NCBI GenBank assembly: GCA_013334575.1
Contig: JAAXXG010000002.1
Span: 5,377-69,376, forward strand
From: Candidatus Moraniibacteriota bacterium
GTDB taxonomy: Bacteria > Patescibacteriota > Minisyncoccia > Moranbacterales > UBA1568
Reading direction: 5' to 3'
Length of the DNA: 64,000 bases
The notes below the pieces were generated by a model, which ran no database searches, was not told the origin of the DNA, and saw only the letters and a program-made list of their open reading frames with translations. Within the stretch, counting starts at the first letter, position 1; each line of letters starts with the position of its first letter. This document shows, piece after piece, positions 4,718 to 43,828 of this stretch. Made by a program: the position numbers and the translations under genes.

Positions 4718-6022
4718 TCACTTCACCCAGCCCCATTCACGAAGGCGAGGCATGTCGTCGTTCATGAAACGGAGCCCTATATCGGTGCGATAGAACATCT
4801 TCGCGATGGATATCTTGCCGATGAGGTCGTACGCGTTCCTCCGCGCTTCCTCGACCGTATCCCCGATGCCGCTGACATGCAGCACCTGACCGCCTTCGCC
4901 AGAGACATAGTAGGTTCCGTCGGGACGGCGGGACACCTCCTGGAAGTGGACCCTGCTCCACTCCTCGGCGGTGAGCTCTTCGCGGAAGAATATGTCCACA
5001 TCCTGCCTTTTCCGCCGTCTCCCCGGAACGGAATACGGAAACGGCGGCACCGCGACAAGGATGACCACGCCGACCTTCCCCTTCGGATACCGGAAATCGT
5101 ACGGCTTCCCGTCGGCAACGGCCTTGAGAAATTCTCCCCAGGGAGACGTCGACAGCGCCATCTGAAGCTGCAACGCCGGATATCCGAACCGCGCGGTGAA
5201 CTCCAGCGGGAAGACGCCCTTCTCGTTCACGATGCAGTTGATATCGACATCGCCGCGGAATCCGGAATCGCGGAGGAAGTCCTCGAGCTTCGCGAGAGTC
5301 TCCCGATACAGCGGATTCTCCTCGTCATCGTCGAACCAGGTCAGTGTTCCCATCTCGAAGGTCTTCGGGCCGAGATCGCCGTCACAGAGATCCTTGTGCT
5401 CCACGTTCATCTCGATCGGACCGACCCAGGAGTTTCCGTTGAAATACCGGCCGATACCGATCTCGATCCCACGAACCCGCTCCTGTAACTCGATGCCGAC
5501 GATGTCACGATGACGCTGATGTTCCCTGTAGGTCTCGAGCATGTTGATCACGTCGCGGCCGTCCGACAGGCGACCGACGTAGTTGAAAATCTTGGATGCG
5601 TTCCCGTTCTGTTTGATCACCCATTCGCGCGGATGCTTCCGGACGAACGAGATCGCCTCGTCGAGCGAAGTGAAATCGACCGCCGAGACGATGCGGACCC
5701 CGCTCGCCCACAGGATCGCCTGTCCGTATGCGCGGTCGTCCTCGGTACGGTCCCCGCGCCCGCTGCCGCCGACCACCGAATACCCCTTCGTTCTGAGCCG
5801 ATCCTGGACCTTTCCCCACCCCGTACCATCGAATATGATGAGTCCGTCGCGTCCGACCCAGCGGAGATGCCTCCGCCAACCACGAACCTTCGTGATCATC
5901 CCCTCCATGTCACCGGCCTGGGAACGGTCACCGACATAGACACGCACGTCGTGCCCCTCGCGCATGAGCCGAAAGGCAAGATCGCCGCCGGAAAGGTCGT
6001 TCGAGATCATGAGTACCCGCAT
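4718..6022 (-). CDS. purD: ATP-grasp enzyme resembling phosphoribosylamine--glycine ligase (PurD-like)
   Basis: The protein begins MRVLMISNDLSGG. Segments VIKQNGNASKIF, GPKTFEMGTL, INCIVNEKGVFPLEFTARFGYP and YRTDIGLRF align by eye to the PurD N, ATP-grasp and C domains. Assigned from recalled motifs only. Confidence 0.6.
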   Translation of the reverse strand: MRVLMISNDLSGGDLAFRLMREGHDVRVYVGDRSQAGDMEGMITKVRGWRRHLRWVGRDGLIIFDGTGWGKVQDRLRTKGYSVVGGSGRGDRTEDDRAYGQAILWASGVRIVSAVDFTSLDEAISFVRKHPREWVIKQNGNASKIFNYVGRLSDGRDVINMLETYREHQRHRDIVGIELQERVRGIEIGIGRYFNGNSWVGPIEMNVEHKDLCDGDLGPKTFEMGTLTWFDDDEENPLYRETLAKLEDFLRDSGFRGDVDINCIVNEKGVFPLEFTARFGYPALQLQMALSTSPWGEFLKAVADGKPYDFRYPKGKVGVVILVAVPPFPYSVPGRRRKRQDVDIFFREELTAEEWSRVHFQEVSRRPDGTYYVSGEGGQVLHVSGIGDTVEEARRNAYDLIGKISIAKMFYRTDIGLRFMNDDMPRLREWGWVK

Positions 6023-12102: not shown

Positions 12103-12956
12103 ACGCGTGTTCGTTTTTTCGTTCCCTTACCGGCCGGCACGGCACCGGGAAAGACGTATCGTCCCTCCATCTCGTCGCTCGCTACCCGGCCGCGGTCGAG
12201 CGCGATGACCCGTCGCCCCACCTTGTTCACGAGTGCCTGATTATGCGTGGCAAGGATGACGGTGGTGCCCAGCTGATTGATCTCGAGCAGGAGGTCGATA
12301 ATCCCTTCCGCCGAGACCGGATCAAGGTTTCCGGTCGGTTCGTCGGCGATGATGATCTTCGGCTGCAGGATAAGCGCCCGGGCGATGGCGACGCGCTGCT
12401 GTTCTCCTCCGGAGAGCTGTTTCGGAAGATTTCCCGCCTTCGCGCCGAGATCGACGATATCGAGGATCTGCGGCACCTCGTCGAGGATCTCGTCGGTCGG
12501 ACTTCCGTACACCTCGAGCGCGTACGCCACGTTCTCGAACGCCGTCTTCTGCGGCAGCAGCTTGAAATCCTGGAACACCGTCCCGATATTGCGACGGTAA
12601 TAAGGGAGGTGTTTCCGATTGATCGTCGAAAGGTCGCGCCCATTGAACGAAACGGCTCCGGATGTCGGCTCCACTTCAGAATAGATAAGTTTGAGCAAGG
12701 TCGATTTTCCCGCGCCGCTCGCGCCGACCAGCGAAACGAACTCGCCGGGAAGGATATCGAAGCTGACACTCGAAAGGGCCGGCGTCCCGTCCGGATATGC
12801 CTTTGAGACGTCATCGAACCGGATTATCGGGAGCGCGATGTCGGAGGATGAGTCACCGTACGTCTGATAGTCGGAAGTCATCGGCTCTCCCGTCGCCCCG
12901 TTTCCGGCATCCGTCTCCGGCATTCTGGTCCTTGCGTTATCCATATCGGCGTTCAT
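12099..12956 (-). CDS. ftsE: Cell-division ATP-binding protein FtsE
   Basis: Walker A is GASGAGKST, the signature [15 protein letters not shown] and Walker [16 protein letters not shown] 12956 is chosen because it lies 17 nt downstream of the prfB stop; the ORF track extends upstream to 13133, overlapping prfB, but that N-terminal extension is Arg-rich and probably not real. Confidence 0.85.
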
Positions 12957-29131: not shown

Positions 29132-29836
29132 TTAGACCGCCTCGGGAACGACATCGGCCGGAGCGCCATCCCCATCGATGACTCCGCTTTCCGGAAGACT
29201 CCCTTCCGCCTCCTCTCCGTCCTTCGTCTGTTCGCCGGCTTCAATCGTCTCCTTCTCGTCCGCCTTACGAAGATCGTCGTAGAACTTGGCGGCACTGACC
29301 TGCATATACGGCATGAGCCACAAGAATCCGATGCCGGCCGTCAGAAGCGCAAGAATGATCCACCCGATGAAACGGAACATGAGCCCGACATACTTCCAGC
29401 CGTAACCACGCATCAGCTCCTTGCTGCGCCGCATCGCCTCGGATGCGCGCACCGAAGGGTCGTCCGCGATCACGAAGTAGGTCATCGAATACGCGATAGC
29501 CGCGACGATTCCGGGAATGACAAGCAGGAGCGACCAGAGGAACACGAACAGCACGATGAGCCAGTATGCCGAAAGGTACGTCGTATACCGCCTGAATCCG
29601 TCGAAGAGCCGTTCGAACGCGGGAGTCTCGCCGCGCGAAGCGGACAGGAAGAAGATCGTCAGTCCGCCGACAAGCGGACCCGAAATGAAAAGCAATACGA
29701 ACGGACCGACGCCTTTCGCGCTCTGAAGCAGCATGACTATCCCGAGATAGGCCGCGGTCACGCCGACCGCCATACCCCACTTCCCCCGAAGAGCCTCGCG
29801 TGCCGACCGCATAAGATCCGCATTCGCCGTACGCAT
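29132..29836 (-). CDS. DUF975-family membrane protein
   Basis: The ORF begins MRTANADLMRSAREALRGKWGMAVGVTAAYL and has 4-5 TM helices, the recalled hallmark of DUF975. Confidence 0.55.
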   Translation of the reverse strand: MRTANADLMRSAREALRGKWGMAVGVTAAYLGIVMLLQSAKGVGPFVLLFISGPLVGGLTIFFLSASRGETPAFERLFDGFRRYTTYLSAYWLIVLFVFLWSLLLVIPGIVAAIAYSMTYFVIADDPSVRASEAMRRSKELMRGYGWKYVGLMFRFIGWIILALLTAGIGFLWLMPYMQVSAAKFYDDLRKADEKETIEAGEQTKDGEEAEGSLPESGVIDGDGAPADVVPEAV

Positions 29837-29951: not shown

Positions 29952-30527
29952 TCAACCATCCCTTCGGAGAAGCCCCTGTGCCTCAAGCAGCAGAAACGGA
30001 TAGCCGGAAATATCACGGGAGACCGTACCGACCCCGATCTCATCGAGGAACGCAAGCATCCCGTCGGCCACCGACTTCGTATCGACCGATTCCGCATCCG
30101 CTCCCTTGTATTCGATCTCCACGAACGCCCCGAGACCCTCGACCGTGTCGAGCGCGACCTCGTAATCACGATAGGCGTATGCGCGACGGACCTTGTCGAC
30201 GGTCACGACCGGACGGATATCGAGAGCCGTCAGTATGTTCCGAAGCGCATCCGCATCGGAAATACCGCTTTCATGTTCCTCACAATGATCGGACGTCCCG
30301 TCCGGCCCGTACTGCCAATCCTTGTAGTTGATCGACGCCTTTCCGTCTTCCGTCCGGATACGCAGCCACTCCCGTATCGGACGCTCCGCAAGAAAGTCAC
30401 GGAATACCGGAACGAAATACTCGTCCATTTGCCGCGACTCGTACCAGAACTCTCCCTCCCGCTCGAGCAGTTCCGTCAGAGGCGCCGCGTTTTCGACCCG
30501 CACCTTGATCTCGATTTCCCTTGACAT
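29952..30527 (-). CDS. CYTH-domain (triphosphate tunnel metalloenzyme / class IV adenylyl cyclase-like) protein
   Basis: The N-terminus carries the ExExK motif (MSREIEIKVRVEN). The size is 191 aa. Confidence 0.65.
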   Translation of the reverse strand: MSREIEIKVRVENAAPLTELLEREGEFWYESRQMDEYFVPVFRDFLAERPIREWLRIRTEDGKASINYKDWQYGPDGTSDHCEEHESGISDADALRNILTALDIRPVVTVDKVRRAYAYRDYEVALDTVEGLGAFVEIEYKGADAESVDTKSVADGMLAFLDEIGVGTVSRDISGYPFLLLEAQGLLRRDG

Positions 30528-30704: not shown

Positions 30705-31253
30705 ATGAAAAACACACTCTTCCTGTCTCTCCTCCTTCTGCTTGTTCCTTTCCCGAGCCGAGACGCCCGAGCCGCATCCGAAATTCCCGACACGTTATCC
30801 GCTCACGCGGCGCTCGACTCGACAGCGGCCCGCATCCCCGACCGGATCAGTCTATCGCTGGCCAGAAAACGGTACGTATTCGACGAGGCAAAGGCGTTCT
30901 CGAAATCGGAACGGACGCGTCTGCAATCGGAATGCCGGCATTTCCACGAACAGACCGGTATGCCGATCGTCGTATTCGCTTCGCCGTCCCTTCCGGACGA
31001 ATCGACGCTTGCAAAAGCAAGCGCCGGCCACACTCATATCGTCCTTCTCTTTCCGGAAACGGACGCCCATGGAAGAAAAACGTGGTTTGGCAGGCTTGTC
31101 ATCGTCCAGACCGTCCGCGACAACGGAATCGCGGACCTCGTTATAAAAAGTTTCCGCGTCAAGCCGGGCTCAAGCGCAGCCGAGGGCGCGCTCGCGGCGC
31201 TAGCAACCGCGACGAACGCGTGGCACATGACGCAGGAGATGAATAAACGCTGA
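30705..31253 (+). CDS. Secreted TPM-domain (TLP18.3/Psb32/MOLO-1) protein
   Basis: A signal peptide is followed by a YVFDEAKAFSKSERTRLQSECRHFHEQTGMPIVV pattern. Confidence 0.5.
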   Translation: MKNTLFLSLLLLLVPFPSRDARAASEIPDTLSAHAALDSTAARIPDRISLSLARKRYVFDEAKAFSKSERTRLQSECRHFHEQTGMPIVVFASPSLPDESTLAKASAGHTHIVLLFPETDAHGRKTWFGRLVIVQTVRDNGIADLVIKSFRVKPGSSAAEGALAALATATNAWHMTQEMNKR

Positions 31254-31984: not shown

Positions 31985-32212
31985 CATCGGTCGGTATTCT
32001 TTATACTTTCAAACGAAACGTGTAACATAATAATGCGGTCGTCGGATTATGTCGCGCGGCTTTTGAAAGGAGCTCGTCCGCCTTGTCCAACAGACATGGA
32101 CAGTCCGACGACTTTGACACTCCGCTCGGTCAATAACGTATCGGCGCGAACCGAAAAAGGCGCCGGCCCCTTTTCCTGACTCCAGGCCGGATGAGCGCCG
32201 TATCACGATATA

Positions 32213-33076: not shown

Positions 33077-33559
33077 TCAAAGCGAATTCAAAGCACCATG
33101 GATATCCGCCGCGAGGTCCCCGATATCCTCCTCCCGTATCGAGGTGATCTCGGACCAGCGTGGCGTTTCGGACTCGAGATCGTCCACAAGGTCGTCGCCT
33201 TTGAGTTTTTCCGAACGCACAGCGCATCGGAAAAAGAAAAGAAACGCGTGATAGGCCTCGTCGAGCGGGTCATAGTAGAAGAAGTTCTCCCGACAGAGGA
33301 CCAGTTCCCCGATCTCGACCTCGAGCCCCGTTTCCTCGCGGATCTCCCTCCTCAGGGCGTCTTCCATCCTTTCCCCGACTTCCACGCCGCCGCCCGGAAA
33401 CCACAGCTTGCCGTTCCCCTTGTTCCGCATCGTGACGACGCGGCCTCCGCTGACGATGAATCCGTAGACGCTCGGCCGGAAGAAGAACTTGTCACGCGGA
33501 ACCGGGACGATTTCCCCGCGACTGTTCTTACAGGATATCTGATTCATAGGAATGACCAT
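33077..33559 (-). CDS. Nudix hydrolase
   Basis: The Nudix box is GGGVEVGERMEDALRREIREETGLEVE. Confidence 0.8.
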   Translation of the reverse strand: MVIPMNQISCKNSRGEIVPVPRDKFFFRPSVYGFIVSGGRVVTMRNKGNGKLWFPGGGVEVGERMEDALRREIREETGLEVEIGELVLCRENFFYYDPLDEAYHAFLFFFRCAVRSEKLKGDDLVDDLESETPRWSEITSIREEDIGDLAADIHGALNSL

Positions 33560-33655: not shown

Positions 33656-34192
33656 TCATGCCTGTTTCGATTTCGTCCGTTCCCCTACTGACCACGGGTG
33701 CAAATCTTCGTAGATGGCATCCTGATAATTATGGGGCTTGAGACGAAGAATCGCTTCGGCTATCGGCATGCAGTGCCGCTCGATCTCGCCGGTGTTTCCG
33801 GTTTTTGTATAGTGTTCGAAACTGTCTATCGTATCCGCCGTCTTGACGATCAGCGCGTCCTCGCCCACTTCAGCGCATCGTCGGACCATATCGTCTATCC
33901 GCTCACGTGAATCCTCTATGGTTCGGTCCTTCGAATTCGCTTGTACGATACGGAGCACGTCCTCTCCGAATCCGTCTCGCAGCGCCTCCTCGGACATATC
34001 CGACCATTCCAAGGCATCATGCAGCAATCCCGCGAGTACGATATTCCGTGAATACCCCTTCCCATACAGGAATACGCCGACCCGGATATCGTGAAACAGG
34101 ATCGGCTTCCGCGACCCCTCTTCCGATACCGGCATACGCTCTGCCAGTGCCCGTACCGCCCGCTCGAATTCGACATCTATCGAGGCATTCAT
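33656..34192 (-). CDS. HD-domain phosphohydrolase
   Basis: The H...HD...D pattern is present (GLLHDALEW). Confidence 0.7.
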   Translation of the reverse strand: MNASIDVEFERAVRALAERMPVSEEGSRKPILFHDIRVGVFLYGKGYSRNIVLAGLLHDALEWSDMSEEALRDGFGEDVLRIVQANSKDRTIEDSRERIDDMVRRCAEVGEDALIVKTADTIDSFEHYTKTGNTGEIERHCMPIAEAILRLKPHNYQDAIYEDLHPWSVGERTKSKQA

Positions 34193-34220: not shown

Positions 34221-34292
34221 TTAAAGTGTCACGCCGAGGAACCAAAGGGTGAAGTCGAGCATCTTGGTGTCGGAGAGCTTCCCGACATTCAT
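34221..34292 (-). CDS. Repeat-family R1 copy A: conserved 23-aa ORF MNVGKLSDTKMLDFTLWFLGVTL, 29 nt upstream of the HD gene
   Basis: Nucleotide conservation with copies at 35988-36049 and 38038-38106, plus two decayed copies. The ATG is preceded by conserved GATATTCCCGGA. Confidence 0.35.
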   Translation of the reverse strand: MNVGKLSDTKMLDFTLWFLGVTL

Positions 34293-34506
34293 GCATCCGG
34301 GAATATCAGCGGGTTTCCGCATCGCACCAAACTCCATATATCCTGCTTCGTACATGTTTAATGCAAATGAGATGTATCGACTACCAATTTGCGATTCATT
34401 CTTCGAACAATTTTTAGATAGACCGTATGGCGCTAATTCCTTCCGAAATAAACTCATCTATCAATAGTATTATTATATACCATCTCATCAAGGGGAAGGT
34501 TTGCTT

Positions 34507-34578: not shown

Positions 34579-35259
34579 TTACCTGGACGCGTCCACGCTT
34601 ACGCGACCAAGCGCCTGCAAGACCTCGTTATCACGGGTATCTTCGAAAGAATCGTAGAACATGCCGGTAGGAAAGTAATCACTTCTTGATCGGCGGCACG
34701 ATACTACCCTGTGCCCGTTGATAATATCGGGAAACCAATTCAAAATGGCCGGAATACCGATGACGATCTGCGATGCTCCGGCATACTCCATCGCATTAAT
34801 TGCGGCGATAATCGAGCGTCCCGTCACGGCACCATCGTCGATGAGCATCACCCGCTTTCCGATAACATCCTCGGGAATCATTCCGCCGAATATGGCGTGC
34901 TGGGAGGCGACGTTTTTGCGGCAATTTAGCACGATTGGATTTGCCAGAGACGCATCTTCCGCATCCCGAAAGAATGTTTCCGGTTCGAACGCACCGGTTT
35001 TCCATACCGTAGCGGTGCCGAAGCCAGTCAGAAATACGGCAACTTCACCGCCCTCAATTTCCTGCGACGGAATCCGGCAATCGTCGACTGAGAAGGAATA
35101 CAACGGCACATCAAGGAGACTCGCTACCTCTTTCGCGACGACGATTCCTCCACGAGCGAGTCCTACGACAATCGTATTTGTCGTCTCGGACGCTTCTCCG
35201 GCGGCGACAATACTGCTTGCCAATTGTCGCCCAGCATCAGTGCGGTTTTCGAAAATCAT
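34579..35259 (-). CDS. Type I phosphoribosyltransferase-family protein (COG1926-like)
   Basis: The PRPP-binding motif is VMLIDDGAVTGRS. The N-terminus is MIFENRTDAGRQLA. Confidence 0.7.
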   Translation of the reverse strand: MIFENRTDAGRQLASSIVAAGEASETTNTIVVGLARGGIVVAKEVASLLDVPLYSFSVDDCRIPSQEIEGGEVAVFLTGFGTATVWKTGAFEPETFFRDAEDASLANPIVLNCRKNVASQHAIFGGMIPEDVIGKRVMLIDDGAVTGRSIIAAINAMEYAGASQIVIGIPAILNWFPDIINGHRVVSCRRSRSDYFPTGMFYDSFEDTRDNEVLQALGRVSVDASR

Positions 35260-35367
35260 GGATATGTTGGTTTTGTTAGAAAAATGTTTAAGGCGTCGAC
35301 CGTTCGTCGACGCCTTGTTGAGACTTGATCCTACCGAGGCCGCGCAGGATTATCAGCAGTAGGAGTA

Positions 35368-35655
35368 TCAGCAGTAGGAGACGTGCTCTGACGCGGCATG
35401 ATTCCTGAGATCATCGAGGTCGATGCCGAAGTCGGCGGAGAGATTTTCGGCGCCCGCCGCAAGCGAGGAGTCGGCGATGACGATGGCGAGCAGCTGAATG
35501 CCAGGCATCTTGTGCGGCTCGGCATTCCCGCCCAGCAGCTTTGCCTTGATGATCTTGTCGGCGTGCATGATAGCTTCTTCCATGATGTCAGCCTCTTCCA
35601 TTTGCGCCTCTTTGATGGCGTCGCGCATGCCGCAGTGATTGATCGCATGACCCAT
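35368..35655 (-). CDS. Hypothetical protein (95 aa)
   Basis: The ATG at 35655 has SD GGGGGA 5 nt upstream. Sequence: MGHAINHCGMRDAIKEAQMEEADIM... I recognise no confident domain. Confidence 0.4.
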   Translation of the reverse strand: MGHAINHCGMRDAIKEAQMEEADIMEEAIMHADKIIKAKLLGGNAEPHKMPGIQLLAIVIADSSLAAGAENLSADFGIDLDDLRNHAASEHVSYC

Positions 35656-35848
35656 AGTATCCCCCGTTGTTTTGTGGTGATTATTGTTGTTGTAGTATAC
35701 GATCGTCACCAGATGATCGCATTCCTCATGAGCAGATTTTTCTCATCAGTCCTGGGGAATGCAATCATCGGCGTGCGCAGGCGGTGCCATACATCGAATC
35801 GGAAAGTTATTAAATGACTGAACATATTAGCAAATATAAACGACTCTG

Positions 35849-36049
35849 TCAAGAATTATATTTATATAGTCGATAATTAGGCTTATTTTTAACGTTTTTC
35901 TTAAACTTGGCCAAAGTTATGACTATTTCCAACGGGTATAAATACAGTATCGCAACGGCCTTATAGATCAAAAATCGTGGTACCATCGCGCCCAATGACC
36001 AGAGAGCAAAGTCAAGCATCTTGGTGCCGAAAAACCTCTCGACGTTCAT
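35849..36049 (-). CDS. Repeat-family R1 copy B, extended to 66 aa (MNVERFFGTKMLDFALWSLGAMV...)
   Basis: Same conserved element as above. Here there is no stop after codon 23, so the ORF continues into an AT-rich hydrophobic tail. Confidence 0.3.
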   Translation of the reverse strand: MNVERFFGTKMLDFALWSLGAMVPRFLIYKAVAILYLYPLEIVITLAKFKKNVKNKPNYRLYKYNS

Positions 36050-36079
36050 GTACTAAAAATATCATCGTGAATCGGAAAA

Positions 36080-36179
36080 GGTACCTGACCCCTTTTCTGG
36101 CTCATCAAATCAACTGGCGCGTACCGGCATAAACACATCGGGTCTTTTCTAGCTTGAGCCAGAAAAGAGGTCAGGCGCC
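36080..36179. repeat. Inverted pair of R2 repeats (GGTACCTGACCCCTTTTCTGGCTCA ... TGAGCCAGAAAAGAGGTCAGGCGCC), 24-25-bp arms about 50 nt apart
   Basis: Read directly. Related single copies lie at 38972-39005 and 39563-39589. Confidence 0.5.
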
Positions 36180-36338
36180 ATTTGAGAGTCTTCCCCTCCT
36201 CCGAAGAAGGTCAATTCCAGACCGAGAGCAGAAGCCATTCGTATGATCTACTCGTTTTCTCCGAACGGCGTCCCGCGATTCACATTTTCGAACCGTGTCT
36301 ATCAGTTTTCACTTGAAAAAAAATACCTAATCCACTTT

Positions 36339-37415
36339 CTAACTTGTTTGCTGGCACTTAAAATCGTTCTTTATCATATATTCCGATCCATCGCCATCCT
36401 TTTCTATATGCTTATCTGGATTGCGAAAAATGTCGATCATCGTTCTAATGAACCTCTCTTTCACTTCCTTGTGGATCTCGATCATTCTACGGACTTGAGC
36501 TTCATCCAAGGCGTCCATTATTTTATCGTCAATTCCGAATATTTCTTTTCCATAATCCTCCGAAAGGGCAAAATTCATTCCCTTTTCCACTTTCCTTGCA
36601 ATTTGATAGACGTATGTTTTCAAGCGGTCGTCTTCTTCGATCAATTTCGAAAGGACGATATCCCTGAAAGAAAACGTGTAGACATCCCCTTCGCCAAGGA
36701 TTTTTTCCGCCCGCGTCACGTCTTCCGTCGACAACTTCCCTTTCGTCGTATCAGACAGCAGCCCCGACCCCAATGGAGCCGAAAAATACATCCCCCCATA
36801 TTTTGCCGAAAAATCTTCGCCGAAGAGATCTTTAACTATCTCACGATTAATCAAATAGTATGCCTTATTAGGGGGGAGCAGTTTTTTGGAAAACAAATCC
36901 CTCCCTTCTCCTGCACCATCACTCCCTTTGCGGTCGTGATCGAGCATCTTCGACAAAGAGTCCTTATCCAGCACCTCCTGATCGACAATCTCATACAACA
37001 GTCGACCGGTCCTGCCATTGCCGTCGGAAAACGGATGAATCGCCTGAATACTATAGTAGAGTAACGTCGCTCTATCTTCATTGTCGCGCAAATTTTTCAA
37101 GGCATCAAAGGCTTCTTTCATCAGCGTATCCTTTTGTTCCGGATATGGAGGCAGATATGCCACGCCTTGAATACCGTAGGAAAGTTCAGTATTTGCTCCG
37201 TCGATACCCCTCCTATTTGTCGGCAATTCCCTGATGATTCCGTTGAGTCTTGAAACGAAATTCTTAAAATCGTCATATGACACATCGAAGATCCATTCGT
37301 CGAACTTTTCCTCCGAGCGCTTCATTTCAGAGAATCCGGATTTTTCTAAAAAATTGAAGACCATTTCTCCGGTATTCATCCTTTCCGCATTCCCTTGCAT
37401 CATTTCCAACGACAT
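36339..37415 (-). CDS. fic: Fic/DOC-family protein (AMPylator-type fold)
   Basis: The canonical Fic motif HPFSDGNGRTGR is present. Size is 358 aa with low GC. Confidence 0.85.
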   Translation of the reverse strand: MSLEMMQGNAERMNTGEMVFNFLEKSGFSEMKRSEEKFDEWIFDVSYDDFKNFVSRLNGIIRELPTNRRGIDGANTELSYGIQGVAYLPPYPEQKDTLMKEAFDALKNLRDNEDRATLLYYSIQAIHPFSDGNGRTGRLLYEIVDQEVLDKDSLSKMLDHDRKGSDGAGEGRDLFSKKLLPPNKAYYLINREIVKDLFGEDFSAKYGGMYFSAPLGSGLLSDTTKGKLSTEDVTRAEKILGEGDVYTFSFRDIVLSKLIEEDDRLKTYVYQIARKVEKGMNFALSEDYGKEIFGIDDKIMDALDEAQVRRMIEIHKEVKERFIRTMIDIFRNPDKHIEKDGDGSEYMIKNDFKCQQTS

Positions 37416-37514
37416 AGGCTTGTCTTAATCCGGACGAAACGAACGCGAATCAAAAAAGTGCCTTACGACTATTCTGGCTCCGATTTTTCCAAAAACTGCA
37501 CCAAGAGACGGAGC

Positions 37515-37555
37515 CGGACATCTTGGCATCGGAACACTTCGCGGCGTTCGACTCT
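37515..37555 (-). repeat. Decayed R1 copy (no ATG) between Nudix and Fic
   Basis: GAGAGTCGAACGCCGCGAAGTGTTCCGATGCCAAGATG aligns at about 75% to the R1 core. Confidence 0.4.
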
Positions 37556-37984
37556 CTATGACGATAGAGCTCTTGCGATACGAGCCGCTTTTCCCACGGC
37601 GGTTCGGAAGTTGTCGTTAAGCCAATGGATGTCGGCAAGGCTGTCGGATCCGACCCACCGCGCCTCCGCGTGTTCGTCGCTCATGTGAATAGTATCCTCT
37701 TCAACGGCGCGGCAGAGATAGAATACGGTATATTTCGGAGGATCCTCGATGCCCCAGCGGGCCGCATGAACCGGCGTGACGATATCGATATCGAGGCCGG
37801 TTTCCTCCTTTACTTCGCGTCGAAGCCCCTCTTCCGGTTCGTCTTCCGCTTCGAGCCTTCCACCGGGAAGCATCCACATCTCCGTCGTGAATTCCTCGTT
37901 CAGCGGCAACCGAAGGATCAGTAACTCGCCCCGTTCGTTCATGATGACTCCGTATTCCCCGACATTACACGTCAATCTCGACAT
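37556..37984 (-). CDS. Nudix hydrolase (second copy)
   Basis: The Nudix box is GGRLEAEDEPEEGLRREVKEETGLDIDI. The start is ATG 37984 (MSRL) or 37942 (MNERG, better SD). The ORF track's 38059 start overlaps R1 copy C. Confidence 0.75.
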   Translation of the reverse strand: MSRLTCNVGEYGVIMNERGELLILRLPLNEEFTTEMWMLPGGRLEAEDEPEEGLRREVKEETGLDIDIVTPVHAARWGIEDPPKYTVFYLCRAVEEDTIHMSDEHAEARWVGSDSLADIHWLNDNFRTAVGKAARIARALSS

Positions 37985-38034
37985 ACTGCTTTTCGATTTC
38001 CATATCAGATCGCAAACGATGAATTTATTATACC

Positions 38035-38106
38035 TCACATGATCGCGCCGAGGGACCACAGGGCAAAATCGAGCATCTTGGTGTCGGAGAACTTCTCGAC
38101 GTTCAT
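38035..38106 (-). CDS. Repeat-family R1 copy C: MNVEKFSDTKMLDFALWSLGAIM
   Basis: It has the same conserved upstream box GATATTCCCGGACAC-ATG and lies 50-90 nt upstream of the second Nudix gene. Confidence 0.35.
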   Translation of the reverse strand: MNVEKFSDTKMLDFALWSLGAIM

Positions 38107-38162
38107 GTGTCCGGGAATATCATTTCGTACAAAAAATTGCCTAGCCTTTTTCGACTTCACAT

Positions 38163-38194
38163 AAAAACCCGTCACGGCTTATCGCCATGACGGG
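38163..38194 (-). terminator. Terminator of the ITPase gene
   Basis: The stem CCCGTCA / TGACGGG has a nested GGC/GCC and a T5 run on the minus strand. Confidence 0.55.
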
Positions 38195-38225
38195 AACCGA
38201 TTTCTTGTCCAAGAAAACTACCGAA

Positions 38226-38765
38226 TCAGAATCCTCGCAGGAAGGCTTCGTAAAACACCTGTTTAAGCCCCTCCGTCAGGATCTTCCGCCTGGAAACCCT
38301 GCAGCCGGACATCACGATATGCGGATCGGTAGGATCTCCGCCGAAGCGCTCGGAAAATACCGACCCGACGGTCGTTGTCCCGAAGCCGCGCTCCTCGGCT
38401 TCCGCGACGCATGCGTCGGGAAATCGCATCCCTTCGGATATCGAAACGTATTCTCTCCCGTCCGGCAACAGCAGAACGATGATAGCGACATCGATTGGAA
38501 ATCGCCTGCCGTCAGCTCCCCCGAATCGGACGATTCCGTTCTCGATACCTATTCCGATGACGTCAGACCCGGTCGCCGCAGCCCCCTTCGCCCGGTTCGA
38601 TGCGCCACGATAGATTTCCTCCAGGCCTTCCGGCTGCGCGTTTACCAATGACGGGATATCCTTGCCCGACACGTCAGCCAGTATCCCCATACTGACGCAG
38701 ACCGCCGAAACCGGACCGACCTTGTGTTCGCTTTCCGAGCCGACAACGATATGTTTTCGTTGCAT
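38226..38765 (-). CDS. YjjX/DUF84-family inosine/xanthosine triphosphatase-like protein
   Basis: VNAQPEGLEEIYRGASNRAKGA aligns by eye to the YjjX [22 protein letters not shown] region, and the C-terminus is similar. Confidence 0.6.
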   Translation of the reverse strand: MQRKHIVVGSESEHKVGPVSAVCVSMGILADVSGKDIPSLVNAQPEGLEEIYRGASNRAKGAAATGSDVIGIGIENGIVRFGGADGRRFPIDVAIIVLLLPDGREYVSISEGMRFPDACVAEAEERGFGTTTVGSVFSERFGGDPTDPHIVMSGCRVSRRKILTEGLKQVFYEAFLRGF

Positions 38766-38924
38766 ATTTCGTTTCTCCTGTTAAGTTTCGAAAATCATCT
38801 CTGTTTTGTAGCAGAGACGTTACGAAACGTCAAGATTCCACAAGGTTTCGACGTCTTCGGTCATCCGACCGATACACGACTCCGTTCGCGCTTCCTTGCA
38901 TAGGACGGGATCCGCCTGCTCCCT

Positions 38925-39005
38925 AGCCCATGACCGAGGACGTTCACGCCTCCGAGAATATCATCGTGAATTGAAAAGGCACCTGACTTCTTTTTCGGCT
39001 CTGGC
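38925..39005 (-). repeat. Decayed R1 copy (ATG->GTG, diverges after 7 codons) abutting an R2 copy (GGCACCTGACTTCTTTTTCGGCTCTGGC)
   Basis: Read directly. The R2 copy ends at the stop codon of the P-loop gene. Confidence 0.4.
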
Positions 39006-39524
39006 TTATAATATACCGGCTCTGATGAGGGCATCTTCCAAGTATTCGCCCGGTTGCATGATAATTTTTTCGTTTGGTTGGTTTACGAAATCCTCGAAAT
39101 CGCTCTGAATGTTCGTCTCGATTCTTTTGACAAATTCTTCATTCGCGCCTCTTTCTCTTGCCCGTTCAATATACTCCTCCTTGCACGTCGGGTCCGGATA
39201 CGCCAACACAAATTCTATGCCATAGTCTCGCATTTCCGAGAAAGGCATACATGGTGCTATGAGAACAATGTCATATATTCCGTTTTTCACTTCTTTAAGA
39301 ATCGCATCGTAATAATTGTTCGGCCAAGCGGGATTGATCTCCCTTTTTGTCGATTTCAGGCTTTCCTTGTTCACGACGGCCTTTTGTTCCTCAGTCAGGA
39401 TATACTTGTAGTCGCCGCTCGGTAGCTCGATTATATTATTATATTTCTTCGTCAAATACGTTTTTCCCGCACAAATCCACGCGCTAATTACGAGTGTTTC
39501 CTTTTTCGTCGATCCATTTTTCAT
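39006..39524 (-). CDS. Hypothetical P-loop NTPase / small kinase-like protein
   Basis: The Walker-A-like motif is ISAWICAGKTY. Size is 172 aa with low GC. Confidence 0.4.
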   Translation of the reverse strand: MKNGSTKKETLVISAWICAGKTYLTKKYNNIIELPSGDYKYILTEEQKAVVNKESLKSTKREINPAWPNNYYDAILKEVKNGIYDIVLIAPCMPFSEMRDYGIEFVLAYPDPTCKEEYIERARERGANEEFVKRIETNIQSDFEDFVNQPNEKIIMQPGEYLEDALIRAGIL

Positions 39525-39562
39525 AAATGTAATAATTGGATATTGAATCTGGAACGCAACTA

Positions 39563-39589
39563 AAAAAGTACCTGACCCTTTTTCTTGCT
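39563..39589 (-). repeat. R2 repeat copy (AAAAAAGTACCTGACCCTTTTTCTTGC)
   Basis: It sits directly 3' of the HNH-like gene stop. Confidence 0.4.
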
Positions 39590-39591
39590 TC

Positions 39592-40362
39592 TTATTTTAC
39601 TTTTTGTAGTGTTTGTTTTTCTCTTAAGCTTTCGCCAATTTTTTTAATAATACTTAACTCAGCGGAATCGTCTAGATCTCCGGATACCATATATAATCTT
39701 GGCATCATTCCAAGAAGTAATCTCTGAAAAGTGCTTGGGGCCTGTAGCTTATCCACTTTTATGTAAACAACGTACCCGCTTCCAAAGTATATCTGGTAAA
39801 ATCGTACTCCATCGATTCTAATTGGTCGTGGATCTAATAGGATTTCCCTAGCAAATTTATTTTTTTCGATGTCGAACTTCCTTATGAAAATAGTGAATGA
39901 TTGATTAGAATCCTCGACGTTATTATCAATCATATCCTTTAGTACTGTTTGATATGGACCCAGCACAACATGTTGATAAAATATATTCTCAGATATATCT
40001 GCTCGAAAAAGGACGGAGCAAAAGAACATTTTTAGTTTTACAAAATCAACTTCTTGCTCAAATACCCATCCAACCGGGTAGGCTCCGCCTTCTTCAAAGA
40101 TTGCTCTAAAGCTAGATTGATTTTGTAACAATATCTTTTGTCCATAATCATCAAGGGGCTTAAACTTTTCTTCGCAGGACAAACACAAAATCTCCTGATC
40201 ATAGATACCTATTCTGCTCTTTTTTGTATGTTCATCCTTATTGCTTGATACAACTAAAAGATGGTCACTTTCCTTTTTTATGGCTCGGAAAAAACTCTCA
40301 GGAATTACATGAGATTTGACTAATTTTTCAAATTCTCGACTACACATCTTGCAAGTCTTCAT
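39592..40362 (-). CDS. Putative HNH/His-Me-finger endonuclease-like protein
   Basis: The ATG at 40362 gives MKTCKMCSREFEKLVKSHVIPESFF... A second CxxC pair (CLSCEEKF) follows. It is very AT-rich, and the assignment is tentative. The ORF track's 301-aa version overlaps the dnaK 3' end. Confidence 0.35.
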   Translation of the reverse strand: MKTCKMCSREFEKLVKSHVIPESFFRAIKKESDHLLVVSSNKDEHTKKSRIGIYDQEILCLSCEEKFKPLDDYGQKILLQNQSSFRAIFEEGGAYPVGWVFEQEVDFVKLKMFFCSVLFRADISENIFYQHVVLGPYQTVLKDMIDNNVEDSNQSFTIFIRKFDIEKNKFAREILLDPRPIRIDGVRFYQIYFGSGYVVYIKVDKLQAPSTFQRLLLGMMPRLYMVSGDLDDSAELSIIKKIGESLREKQTLQKVK

Positions 40363-40370
40363 AAATATAT

Positions 40371-40400
40371 GAAGAGCGGAGGTATAACACCTCCGCTCTT
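40371..40400 (-). terminator. dnaK terminator
   Basis: A 12-bp perfect stem GAAGAGCGGAGG / CCTCCGCTCTTC lies 9 nt after the dnaK stop and is followed by a T-rich tract on the minus strand. Confidence 0.6.
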
Positions 40401-40408
40401 CGTAAACC

Positions 40409-42337
<1,929 letters not shown>

Positions 42338-42589: not shown

Positions 42590-42922
42590 TCAGAACAGCC
42601 GCTGTCCGTTTGGCACGTCCTTATCCGGAACCGCAAGGACGACACGTCCGTTTTCATCCGGAAATCCGAGCGTAAGCACTTCGGATACGAACGGCCCGAT
42701 CTGCTTCGGCGAAAAGTTCACGACACCCATCACACGCTTCCCGACCAGCTCCTCCTTGGAATAGAGCGAGGTTATCTGTACCGACGAGCGTTTCATCCCG
42801 ACCTCGGACCCGAAATCGATCGTCAGCTTGTAGGCGGGCTTCCTCGCTTCCGGAAATTCTTCGGCAGACACGATAGTTCCACTCCGGATGTCCACCTTAT
42901 CGAAATCTTCGTACGTGATCAT
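42590..42922 (-). CDS. csaA: tRNA-binding-domain protein (CsaA/Trbp111/EMAP-like OB fold)
   Basis: MITYEDFDKVDIRSGTIVSAEEFPEARKPAYKLTIDFG matches the MetRS-C/CsaA OB-fold pattern. Confidence 0.7.
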   Translation of the reverse strand: MITYEDFDKVDIRSGTIVSAEEFPEARKPAYKLTIDFGSEVGMKRSSVQITSLYSKEELVGKRVMGVVNFSPKQIGPFVSEVLTLGFPDENGRVVLAVPDKDVPNGQRLF

Positions 42923-42937
42923 ATTCGATTCGCTACT

Positions 42938-43828
42938 CTAGGCGACGCTCACCTTCGCCGCCGCGATCACCTTGTCCCCCATCATGTAGCCCTTGCGATG
43001 CACAGTGGTGATCTTCTGTACGTTTCCTTCCCTGACCTCCCCGTCCGTACCGATCGCCTCGTGCCGGGACGGATCGAAGTCGTCACCGACCTTCGGCTCA
43101 ATGAGCGCAACGCCGTTCTGCGAGAGCACGTCCTCGAACTGCTTCGCTATGTAGCCGATACCGGTCACCCACGGGCTGTCCTTGGCCTCTTCCGGGACAT
43201 GTGCGGCCGCCGCATGGAAGTTGTCGAGTACCGGTATCAAATCAAGCACGAGCCGCTCCACCTTGTACGCGCCCATCTCGGCACCCTCGGCATCGCGTCG
43301 TTTGCGGTAGTTCTCGAAATCCGCCAGGCACCGCTTCCAGCCGGACAAGGCGTCGCGATTCTCCAGATGCTCCTTCGCAAGGAGGACGGTTCGCCGCTTG
43401 TCGGCCTCGTAGCCCTTGTCTTCGAAGGTCTCCGCGGCCTCGTCGAGCGTCATCCACTCGAAGCCGTCATGTTCGGCCGGGTCGGTCTTCACCCCGGCAT
43501 CGTGGGTAAAGGCGACGAAGCGGAGGGCTTGGAGCGCGTCGCCCTCATCACTCGTGAGATGGCGGAAGAACGGAAGCGGCACAATATCACGGACGGCAAG
43601 TCCGGTCTCTTCCCTTACTTCGCGGACGATCGTCTCTTCCGGCGTCTCGTCCGCATCCACGTGTCCGCCGGGAAGGTCGCGCTTGCCCGATCCGCGCCGA
43701 TCACCCTTAGCCCGCGTCAGGACGAGGACGCGCCCGTCCGGACCGATGACGGCGGCCTTGACCGTGATGCGGAAGATCCCGTCCGTCGGCTTCCCGTCCG
43801 TCATTTCGTGCGTTTTCTTTCCGGTCAT
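42938..43828 (-). CDS. grpE: GrpE nucleotide-exchange factor whose N-terminal region is a Nudix hydrolase domain
   Basis: Residues about 30-150 carry the Nudix box GGHVDADETPEETIVREVREETGL. Residues about 150-296 are GrpE (WKRCLADFENYRKRRDAE...KITTVHRKGYMMGDKVIAAAKVSVA). It reads as a single continuous frame. Confidence 0.8.
   Translation of the reverse strand: MTGKKTHEMTDGKPTDGIFRITVKAAVIGPDGRVLVLTRAKGDRRGSGKRDLPGGHVDADETPEETIVREVREETGLAVRDIVPLPFFRHLTSDEGDALQALRFVAFTHDAGVKTDPAEHDGFEWMTLDEAAETFEDKGYEADKRRTVLLAKEHLENRDALSGWKRCLADFENYRKRRDAEGAEMGAYKVERLVLDLIPVLDNFHAAAAHVPEEAKDSPWVTGIGYIAKQFEDVLSQNGVALIEPKVGDDFDPSRHEAIGTDGEVREGNVQKITTVHRKGYMMGDKVIAAAKVSVA

Follow-up and report, generated by a model that had tools for sequence, protein, structure and literature searches.

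A low-GC stretch behind dnaK in a Moranbacteria genome is probably a zone of piecemeal gene turnover and not a single mobile island

Downstream of the conserved heat-shock gene dnaK, a metagenome-assembled genome (MAG) of Candidatus Moranbacteria contains a stretch of low GC content (positions 35270-40408 of the 64-kb window, i.e. of the whole stretch of DNA that was analysed). The original prediction, made from the sequence alone, had read it as horizontally acquired accessory, defence or toxin content, possibly a nucleotide-targeting conflict system. We think it somewhat better than even that the stretch is instead a turnover zone behind dnaK, and not a single mobile island, with resident nucleotide-pool genes and AT-rich units of separate origin side by side. 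It would form the dnaK-proximal part of a flexible region that starts right after the dnaK terminator in a high-GC clade of Moranbacteria and turns over gene by gene, with two kinds of single-gene units interleaved. The resident nucleotide-pool units would be the Nudix, DUF84 NTPase, HD_4, phosphoribosyltransferase (PRTase) and CYTH genes, plus a P-loop gene widespread in the candidate phyla radiation (CPR); the AT-rich units, with separate histories, would be a phage-related gene of 256 codons (p256) and a Patescibacteria-wide protein of the Fic AMP-transferase type. This reading rests on observed composition, gene families, variability among relatives and independent phyletic patterns. Its main value is corrective, as a GC trough that sits beside a CPR core gene and resembles a toxin or defence island resolves into a hotspot plus resident nucleotide-pool genes. 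The P-loop protein, the Fic family and a junction motif, D2, are leads of modest wider interest, none of which overturns current understanding.

Composition of the stretch

The drop in composition that had been noticed by eye is real. GC is 0.460 across 35270-40408, as compared to 0.584 in the remainder of the window (window mean 0.574), and the 5,139-nt segment with the lowest GC in the whole 64 kb begins at 35251. Segments of this kind that do not overlap 32-40.4 kb have a mean GC of 0.586 (standard deviation 0.018, minimum 0.549), and composition is non-uniform by windowed GC and by GC at third codon positions. Long A/T runs, also cited at first, are weak evidence, since only three of the window's ten runs of at least 7 nt lie within 32-40.4 kb. 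At 300-nt resolution the stretch is a mosaic: GC is 0.33-0.43 at 39.0-40.4 kb, 0.37-0.48 at 36.2-37.5 kb and about 0.40 at 35.7-36.3 kb (0.43 in the spacer 35710-36338), while the Nudix gene (37556-37984) and the DUF84 gene (38226-38765) have a GC of 0.56-0.58, as in ordinary window genes. GC at third codon positions (GC3) is 0.92 in DnaK and 0.88 in HrcA, and 0.63-0.76 in ordinary window genes, including this Nudix gene (0.64), the DUF84 gene (0.67) and a gene for a 95-residue hypothetical protein (0.76); it is 0.52, 0.51 and 0.31 in the Fic gene, the P-loop gene and p256, respectively. The latter two together (39006-40362) have a GC of 0.376. The drop is carried by these three genes plus spacers, not by one imported block. 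The genes listed for the stretch, dnaK included, all lie on the minus strand.

The gene set first proposed survives in part. The Fic protein, one Nudix hydrolase, the P-loop protein and the DUF84 protein (called an ITPase) are inside 35270-40408, and the PRTase and the second Nudix hydrolase lie outside these coordinates. Both Nudix proteins exceed the threshold of the NUDIX hidden Markov model (HMM; 63.7 and 58 bits vs a cut-off of 21.1). The DUF84 gene matches Pfam PF01931 with 59.8 bits (cut-off 25), whereas NCBIfam equivalogs give only 35-49 bits against cut-offs of 117-199. Two of the AT-rich proteins are named by NCBI as hypothetical proteins HGB18_01585 and HGB18_01580 of this MAG.

Relatives and the dnaK 3' flank

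Relatives were collected by a metagenome scan with DnaK, which gave 80 loci at 66-92% identity, and others were fetched through homologues of the P-loop protein, p256 or Fic; sampling is centred on dnaK, the P-loop gene and Fic, and individual loci are given L numbers. Looking up the exact sequences of the window's DnaK and p256 proteins matched no contig on record. The hrcA-grpE-dnaK order is kept throughout the 80 loci, and none of the window genes of 31.5-40.4 kb stands downstream of dnaK in any of them, so the block does not show identical synteny in sister genomes. The stretch thus combines deviant composition with absence at the same site in relatives, as an island does. A relative at 92% identity (L046) is collinear with the window from 56 to 40.4 kb, upstream of dnaK, and unrelated downstream. 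In more distant relatives the sequence behind dnaK rejoins window genes at 26.4 kb and at 15.7-11 kb; therefore, about 14 kb of the window is lineage-specific. In the 60 loci whose downstream sequence is long enough, the first open reading frame (ORF) past dnaK belongs to 38 different clusters, and in the 29 loci with DnaK identity of at least 80% it belongs to 23. As the gene behind dnaK differs nearly every time, this clade has a hotspot at the dnaK 3' flank.

What occupies the flank in relatives is varied. An MNT-HepT toxin-antitoxin pair lies directly after dnaK in L046, L047 and L129, and L047 also has an insertion sequence (IS) transposase. MNT is a nucleotidyltransferase and HepT a HEPN protein, and the HepT 3' end duplicates the dnaK 3' coding end in L046 (11886-11921 vs 12630-12662; 25+10 nt, 92-100% identity) and in L129 (4682-4711 vs 5560-5589; 30 nt, 87% identity). 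To judge from the repeat, this is a target-duplication signature, as would be left by insertion into the dnaK 3' end. In L129/L130, the sister genome (DnaK identity 94.5%), dnaK is followed by a separate low-GC stretch of about 9 kb, with other content, namely MNT-HepT, SLFN_AlbA_2, a MazG-like gene and a KAP NTPase, plus the P-loop gene at 94% identity. In another Moranbacteria genome (L131, GCA_013334245.1), a 354-residue RelA_SpoT-domain protein, possibly a small alarmone synthetase, stands right after dnaK (235-1299); with the HD_4 gene of the window (33656-34192), it raises the prospect that alarmone metabolism may be a recurring cargo of the region.

The P-loop gene

The 172-residue P-loop protein has no match in Pfam, NCBIfam, PADLOC or PDB sequences, and its sole family match is phrog_4182 (E 8e-24). 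Its Walker A motif, AWICAGKT (residues 15-22), is invariant within the family. An AlphaFold2 (AF2) model with a mean predicted local distance difference test score (pLDDT) of 86 was compared with known structures by Foldseek, which returned UCK2 (E 1e-4), AK6/Fap7, GMP kinase and TMP kinase at probabilities of 0.94-1.0 and template modelling (TM) scores of 0.45-0.53; by its modelled fold the protein is nucleoside/nucleotide-kinase-like. Homologues form more than 120 clusters at 72-94% identity in CPR genomes, with Moranbacteria and Nomurabacteria among the named examples. In L129/L130 the gene lies 3 kb downstream of dnaK within the different low-GC stretch, in L131 it is found amid RelA_SpoT, AAA_18, NUDIX and Maf genes, and in L133 and L134, whose genomes are low in GC, an NT5C gene precedes it. 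A DUF975 gene stands immediately ahead of it in L131 and 9 kb away from it in the window.

When the window is compared with L129, the P-loop gene has a third-codon identity of 0.85, and dnaK one of 0.81. Because the two values match, the gene has been co-inherited with dnaK, i.e. vertically, since the split from L129. Its GC3 (0.51-0.56 in the high-GC clade, 0.28 in genomes of 35% GC) would suit a gene that has long been resident and has partly ameliorated better than one imported recently. Distant homologues (about 28% identity) occur in 193 phage records, mostly of large phages (jumbo, T5-like and SPO1-like), where some are annotated as polynucleotide kinase, and the CPR-type gene was absent from an IMG/VR search. 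The claim that the nucleotide enzymes are accessory rather than core content is not supported: the Nudix, DUF84, HD and 95-codon genes have native GC3, and the P-loop gene is vertically inherited. The resident units would serve nucleotide salvage and pool sanitation, a role that fits an organism without known nucleotide biosynthesis pathways, as described for the Patescibacteria, in which genomic islands are already known to be common (PMC12455944); nucleotide enzymes also recur around the P-loop gene in relatives. The P-loop protein is of interest as a candidate core salvage enzyme for organisms unable to make nucleotides.

The p256 gene

The gene of the supposed HNH-like nuclease is p256 (39592-40362); a 301-residue ORF overlapping dnaK is an artefact of taking the longest ORF. 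No Pfam, NCBIfam or PADLOC match was obtained with thresholds applied, and the protein matches phrog_19960/7075 (E 6e-18). The nuclease call is not borne out by Pfam HNH_5, which scores 12 bits against a cut-off of 27.5. Within the p256 family this model reaches E<=1 in 7 of 18 close members (best 1.3e-3) and E<=0.01 in only 1 of 75 diverse members. The residues C4, C7, H18, D55, C60, C63, D71, Y73, R120, K202 and D204 are conserved. In an AF2 model (pLDDT 82.8), which has no fold match in the PDB, H18 closes a β-strand and C60, C63 and E64 sit on a short helix. The Cys4/His pattern and the modelled position of H18 appear compatible with the His-Me finger as defined in PMC5714182, and p256 is at most a hypothetical nuclease. 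As it begins 9 nt behind the dnaK terminator, which leaves no room for a promoter of its own, p256 would be expressed by terminator read-through.

We consider it unlikely that p256 is a selfish gene, homing-endonuclease-like or site-specific, that targets the sequence just past the dnaK terminator. Such a gene would account for patchy presence, fixed position and persistent AT-richness, and all three are seen. Homologues at 71-75% identity are found in a few related metagenomic contigs, and in L126-L128 a 71% homologue has its ATG 9-10 nt past the dnaK terminator hairpin, the same position as in the window, with a GC of 0.35 and a GC3 of 0.29-0.32 in a context of 0.55-0.63 GC. The gene is missing downstream of dnaK in the closer relatives L129 (DnaK 94.5%) and L046/L047 (about 92%). 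The His-Me-finger-compatible pattern and relatives in phages and prophages point the same way. However, the homing reading is weakened by the HNH_5 and fold results given above and by distant homologues at unrelated sites; moreover, 71% protein identity is close to the divergence of HrcA (76%), so that one ancestral insertion with later losses would account for the pattern just as well. The wider family comprises 6,141 clusters at 50% identity, all of about 240-270 residues, and includes members in prophages and phages, in a small ORF cluster beside housekeeping genes and, in one case, in a defence island of Marinobacterium, where its neighbours are SIR2_2, OLD-type ATPase and type III restriction genes.

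The Fic protein

The 358-residue Fic protein matches the Fic domain HMM (PF02661) with 47 bits (cut-off 24, E 4.6e-12). Its active-site motif, HPFSDGNGRTGR at residues 127-138, is the canonical HxFx(D/E)GNGRxxR, and H127, D131, G132, N133, G134, R135 and R138 are invariant in 20 homologues. The original prediction that it has no adjacent antitoxin was correct, and the inhibitory [ST]xxxE[GN] motif occurs neither in the protein nor in ORFs of at least 40 residues within 35.7-38.2 kb. The conserved segment 'ILGEGD' (E242) may stand in for the inhibitory motif in a non-canonical form. About 70 full-length homologues (35-64% identity, around 365 residues) occur across the Patescibacteria, and literature searches on Fic proteins in this phylum gave nothing relevant. 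In L136-L139 a 49% homologue is flanked by unrelated genes near rpsT and ruvA. A 366-residue protein of similar size and without a Pfam match precedes it there (4772-5872), and may be either its partner or a divergent paralogue.

Defence annotation of this protein is limited to its core. PADLOC matches SoFic (E 3e-14) over Fic residues 43-142 only, corresponding to profile positions 112-209 of 361, and the NCBIfam SoFic model gives only 28.7 bits (cut-off 550); we therefore rejected the candidate of a SoFic orthologue or single-gene defence system. Alignments to SoFic and FICD structures are likewise limited to the catalytic core. We infer that the protein is a regulated housekeeping modifier rather than a toxin. 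A Patescibacteria-wide family with an intact active site and without the canonical auto-inhibition motif is what gives this gene its modest wider interest.

A conflict or defence locus, in which an unregulated Fic toxin, an HNH-type nuclease and nucleotide-depleting enzymes (Nudix, NTPase, kinase) act against phages or competitors, is improbable. It fails mainly because its components never co-occur elsewhere: L126-L128 have p256 but neither the P-loop gene nor Fic, L129-L134 have the P-loop gene but neither of the other two, and Fic is at other sites in L136-L139. The locus does have partial PADLOC matches (the SoFic core, and a PDC-S07 candidate for the Nudix proteins), its Fic protein combines the canonical motif with the lack of [ST]xxxE[GN] or an antitoxin, the same hotspot holds MNT-HepT, SLFN_AlbA_2 and a KAP NTPase in relatives, and the Marinobacterium homologue of p256 has defence genes on both sides. 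Against this, the SoFic match is confined to the core, the Fic family is phylum-wide and found among unrelated genes, the Nudix and DUF84 genes are of native composition, PADLOC gives no match for the P-loop gene or p256, and the nuclease assignment is unproven.

Repeats D2 and D1

Two repeat families had been described as confined to 35270-40408. Both are real, and one copy of each lies to the left of 35270. D2 is a 24-27-nt motif, AGCCAGAAAAGGGGTCAGGTACCTTTT, with seven copies between 32155 and 39589 (7.4 kb), as compared to 0-1 matches in shuffled sequence, and none in the other ~56 kb of the window. Most copies lie 0-6 nt past the stop codons of co-oriented genes, and two form an inverted pair (36069-36190). 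A near-identical motif (CAGAAAAGGGGTCAGGTACCTTTT) occurs downstream of dnaK in L048, L049, L126-L128, L129 and L131; no exact match was found in viral contigs. D2 was rejected as a plain intrinsic terminator, as its hairpins (-2 to -12 kcal/mol, non-significant z) contrast with that of dnaK (-25.6 kcal/mol, z -7.7), and the real terminators after dnaK, DUF84 and the 95-codon gene are strong. Because the hairpin is weak and unremarkable, it is the sequence of D2 that is conserved and not a stem. A role as a -35 promoter element was also rejected, since the spacing to -10-like boxes is inconsistent among copies and a normal TTGACA-17-TAATAT promoter lies nearby.

D1 is an 80-nt repeat with three copies (34229, 35986 and 38043), which open with a ATGATATT box 8-9 nt ahead of an ATG and carry an ORF of 23 codons in two cases and of 66 in the third. 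They lie upstream of the native-composition HD, Nudix and 95-codon genes, and a decayed copy precedes DUF84. The D1 peptide has no homologue in any fetched locus. Rfam gave nothing in the stretch at gathering thresholds or at E<=1, besides spurious matches on the dnaK terminator, and a structured RNA leader was rejected, as the three-copy consensus fold reaches -14 kcal/mol over 127 columns with little covariation. Substitutions at codon positions 1/2/3 number 3/6/9 in a hand count on the three-copy alignment, a pattern compatible with a coding as well as a non-coding repeat.

Gene cassettes recombined at D2, as an integron-like array anchored at dnaK with no integrase nearby, would explain the number and placement of the copies, their recurrence downstream of dnaK in relatives, and a hairpin too weak for a plain terminator with a conserved loop sequence. 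We rate this as quite unlikely: no attC R''/R' boxes and no recombinase were found in the region, the motif is missing from viral contigs, and D2 could instead be a repeat of the repetitive extragenic palindromic (REP) or miniature inverted-repeat transposable element (MITE) type, or an operator. The relatives were sampled around dnaK and the query genes only, so its apparent confinement to this region in relatives may be a sampling effect. The fuller proposal is that D2 is the recombination or recognition site of an undescribed cassette exchange tied to the dnaK 3' end, for which another locus would supply the recombinase, and that the module of D2, -10-like box and 23-codon ORF is a portable expression unit for captured genes; it is speculative and we give it little credence. 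Even so, a conserved junction motif at a clade-wide dnaK 3' hotspot is the one feature that could prove more.

Mobility and the weight of the evidence

No integrase or transposase was found among the ORFs of 25.8-44.7 kb, no structural phage gene was found, and the only tRNA genes of the window are at 10.1 and 14.2 kb. The phage or integrative-element attachment (att) sites expected at the ends did not materialise, as neither the dnaK 3' end nor its terminator is repeated in the window. A search for attC (R'' RYYYAAC ... R' GTTRRRY) gave 0 candidate pairs in 32-40.5 kb, as compared to 1.4 expected in shuffles. The horizontal acquisition first proposed is favoured by the deviant composition, the absence after dnaK in the 80 loci and the phage affinities, and is not supported as a single acquired island. 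That one acquired island or degraded prophage between dnaK and the GC-rich neighbourhood brought in all the low-GC genes together is very doubtful and largely refuted, since the lowest-GC segment of the window, two genes matching phage families (one with homologues in 193 phage records), a block missing from relatives and the dnaK-end repeat around MNT-HepT in L046 and L129, by which site-specific insertion does occur here, are set against a GC mosaic with native-composition genes interleaved, the lack in the window of any integrase, transposase, structural phage gene or duplicated dnaK 3' end and of a tRNA at the site, a P-loop gene resident since before the L129 split, and three AT-rich genes that differ in phyletic distribution.

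The reading of a turnover zone with resident nucleotide-pool genes has four points to answer. Absence downstream of dnaK is not the same as absence from the genome in loci sampled in this way. The GC3 of p256 is about 0.30 in three lineages that are 29% apart in protein sequence, which simple vertical residence does not explain. Toxin-antitoxin and defence-type genes occupy the same site in relatives and a p256 homologue lies in a defence island, and a defence role for some units is possible. Lastly, the presence of D2 at unit junctions, both in the window and among relatives, may point to some organised mechanism of recombination or regulation, which lies outside this reading.

Features of the region and its neighbours

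The features are collected in the table. Just to the left of the stretch, CYTH (triphosphate tunnel; 29952-30527, minus strand), TPM-phosphatase (30705-31253, plus strand) and DUF975 (29132-29836, minus strand) genes prolong the theme of nucleotide and phosphate enzymes leftward. A contig of the same strain (L135, Logan SRR11449211, 11,396 nt) has the gene order of the window from about 39.1 to 27.7 kb, with a 100% identical Fic protein, and breaks off at the D2 copy that lies just past the P-loop gene, so that the gene itself is missing; the assembly may have broken, or the strain may vary, at the AT-rich segment of the P-loop gene and p256.

On the other side of dnaK, GrpE is fused to an N-terminal Nudix domain (42938-43828, minus strand, 296 residues; 449 residues in L129, 606-1955), so that a nucleotide-exchange factor is, unusually, joined to a nucleotide pyrophosphatase domain. 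The fusion is also present in L046 (8284-9129) and L047 (5678-6580) and in the hrcA-grpE-dnaK operon of many, not all, relatives, and a scan of genome contigs with the fusion gave no close relative (best 41%). Between grpE and dnaK lies a 110-residue ORF (42590-42922, minus strand) that is CsaA-like (tRNA-binding domain) by eye only. It has no tblastn match in any relative, and the same position holds HSP20 in L129 and unrelated sequence in L046; the grpE-dnaK spacer is therefore variable too.

Table. Features between the second Nudix gene and dnaK, with the leftmost D2 copy (window coordinates, from right to left).
Feature	Position	Strand	Remarks
dnaK	40409-42337	-	conserved heat-shock gene
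Intrinsic terminator hairpin of dnaK	40371-40401	-	14-bp stem, -25.6 kcal/mol, z -7.7; right-hand limit of variable region
p256, AT-rich phage-related gene, 256 residues	39592-40362	-	N-terminal Cys4/His motif; GC 0.348, GC3 0.31
D2 copy	39563-39589	-	2 nt past p256 stop, 39 nt ahead of P-loop ATG
P-loop nucleoside/nucleotide-kinase-like protein, 172 residues (by model)	39006-39524	-	phrog_4182, Foldseek
D2 copy, ATGATATT box and start of decayed D1 module (GTGAACGTC)	38957-39000	-	
DUF84/NTPase_I-T (inosine/xanthosine triphosphatase-type)	38226-38765	-	Pfam PF01931 E 3.9e-16; GC3 0.67
Intrinsic terminator 3' of DUF84	38168-38194	-	11-bp stem, 8 GC pairs, T-run
D1 module copy, 23-codon ORF (MNVEKFSDTKMLDFALWSLGAIM)	38035-38122	-	upstream of Nudix gene
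Nudix hydrolase	37556-37984	-	Pfam NUDIX E 2.2e-17; GC3 0.64; L135 gene call starts at 37942
D2 copy	37453-37479	-	between Nudix stop and Fic start
Fic protein, 358 residues	36339-37415	-	Pfam Fic 47 bits; GC 0.437, GC3 0.52
D2 copy	36318-36344	-	overlaps Fic stop codon
Inverted D2 pair	36069-36190	.	36-nt arms, 81% complementary, 50 nt apart; MITE-like layout
D1 module copy extended to 66-codon ORF	35849-36049	-	family searches without match
Sigma-70-like promoter TTGACA-17-TAATAT of 95-residue gene	35824-35852	-	
Hypothetical gene, 95 residues	35368-35655	-	GC3 0.76; also called in L135; family searches without match
Terminator 3' of 95-residue gene	35290-35316		
PRTase-domain protein	34579-35259	-	Pfam Pribosyltran E 8.9e-13; GC3 0.57; outside 35270-40408
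D1 module copy, 23-codon ORF	34221-34308	-	upstream of HD gene; outside 35270-40408
HD_4 (RelA/SpoT-type HD phosphohydrolase) protein	33656-34192	-	Pfam HD_4 E 1.3e-8
Second Nudix hydrolase	33077-33559	-	Pfam NUDIX E 1.4e-15; GC3 0.74; outside 35270-40408
Leftmost D2 copy	32155-32181	-	

Comparison with known systems

The stretch is most readily compared with the flexible islands and hotspots that lie beside conserved genes, including those of Patescibacteria (PMC12455944). It resembles them in its deviant composition, in being bounded by a core gene, in content that differs between close relatives, and in the toxin-antitoxin, IS and phage-like genes found at the same site in those relatives. 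Unlike mobile islands, it has native-composition genes and one vertically inherited gene interleaved, and the window offers no integrase, att repeat or tRNA at the site. Integron cassette arrays and clusters of attC sites lacking integron-integrases (CALINs) likewise consist of co-oriented short ORFs that are heterogeneous in composition, have functions of accessory type and each have a repeated motif behind them; however, the 24-27-nt motif of the window lacks the R''/L''/L'/R' architecture of attC, and there is no IntI.

Similar partial likenesses are found for the three AT-rich genes. p256 shares with His-Me finger (HNH_5) nucleases the order CxxC...H...CxxC and a modelled histidine at the end of a β-strand followed by a short helix, and, like free-standing phage homing endonuclease genes, it is small, stand-alone, AT-rich and wedged behind a conserved gene, with relatives in phages. 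It differs from HNH_5 in its sub-threshold score, in a Glu where Asn or His normally binds the metal, in matching no solved HNH structure and in an additional conserved C-terminal domain of about 170 residues. The Fic protein has the domain and the canonical HPFxDGNGRxxR motif of the Fic/Doc AMP-transferases SoFic, FICD and VbhT/FicT, whereas it lacks their Fic_N domain, inhibitory helix motif and adjacent antitoxin and carries a family-specific C-terminal region of about 200 residues that is conserved across the Patescibacteria. Lastly, the P-loop protein has the AWICAGKT P-loop and, as modelled, the kinase-like fold of UCK2, AK6/Fap7, the guanylate and thymidylate kinases and phrog_4182 (Foldseek probability of about 1), and is set apart from the known P-loop kinases by fitting no Pfam or NCBIfam model, by TM scores of only 0.45-0.53 and by an unusually high conservation across the CPR (72-94%).

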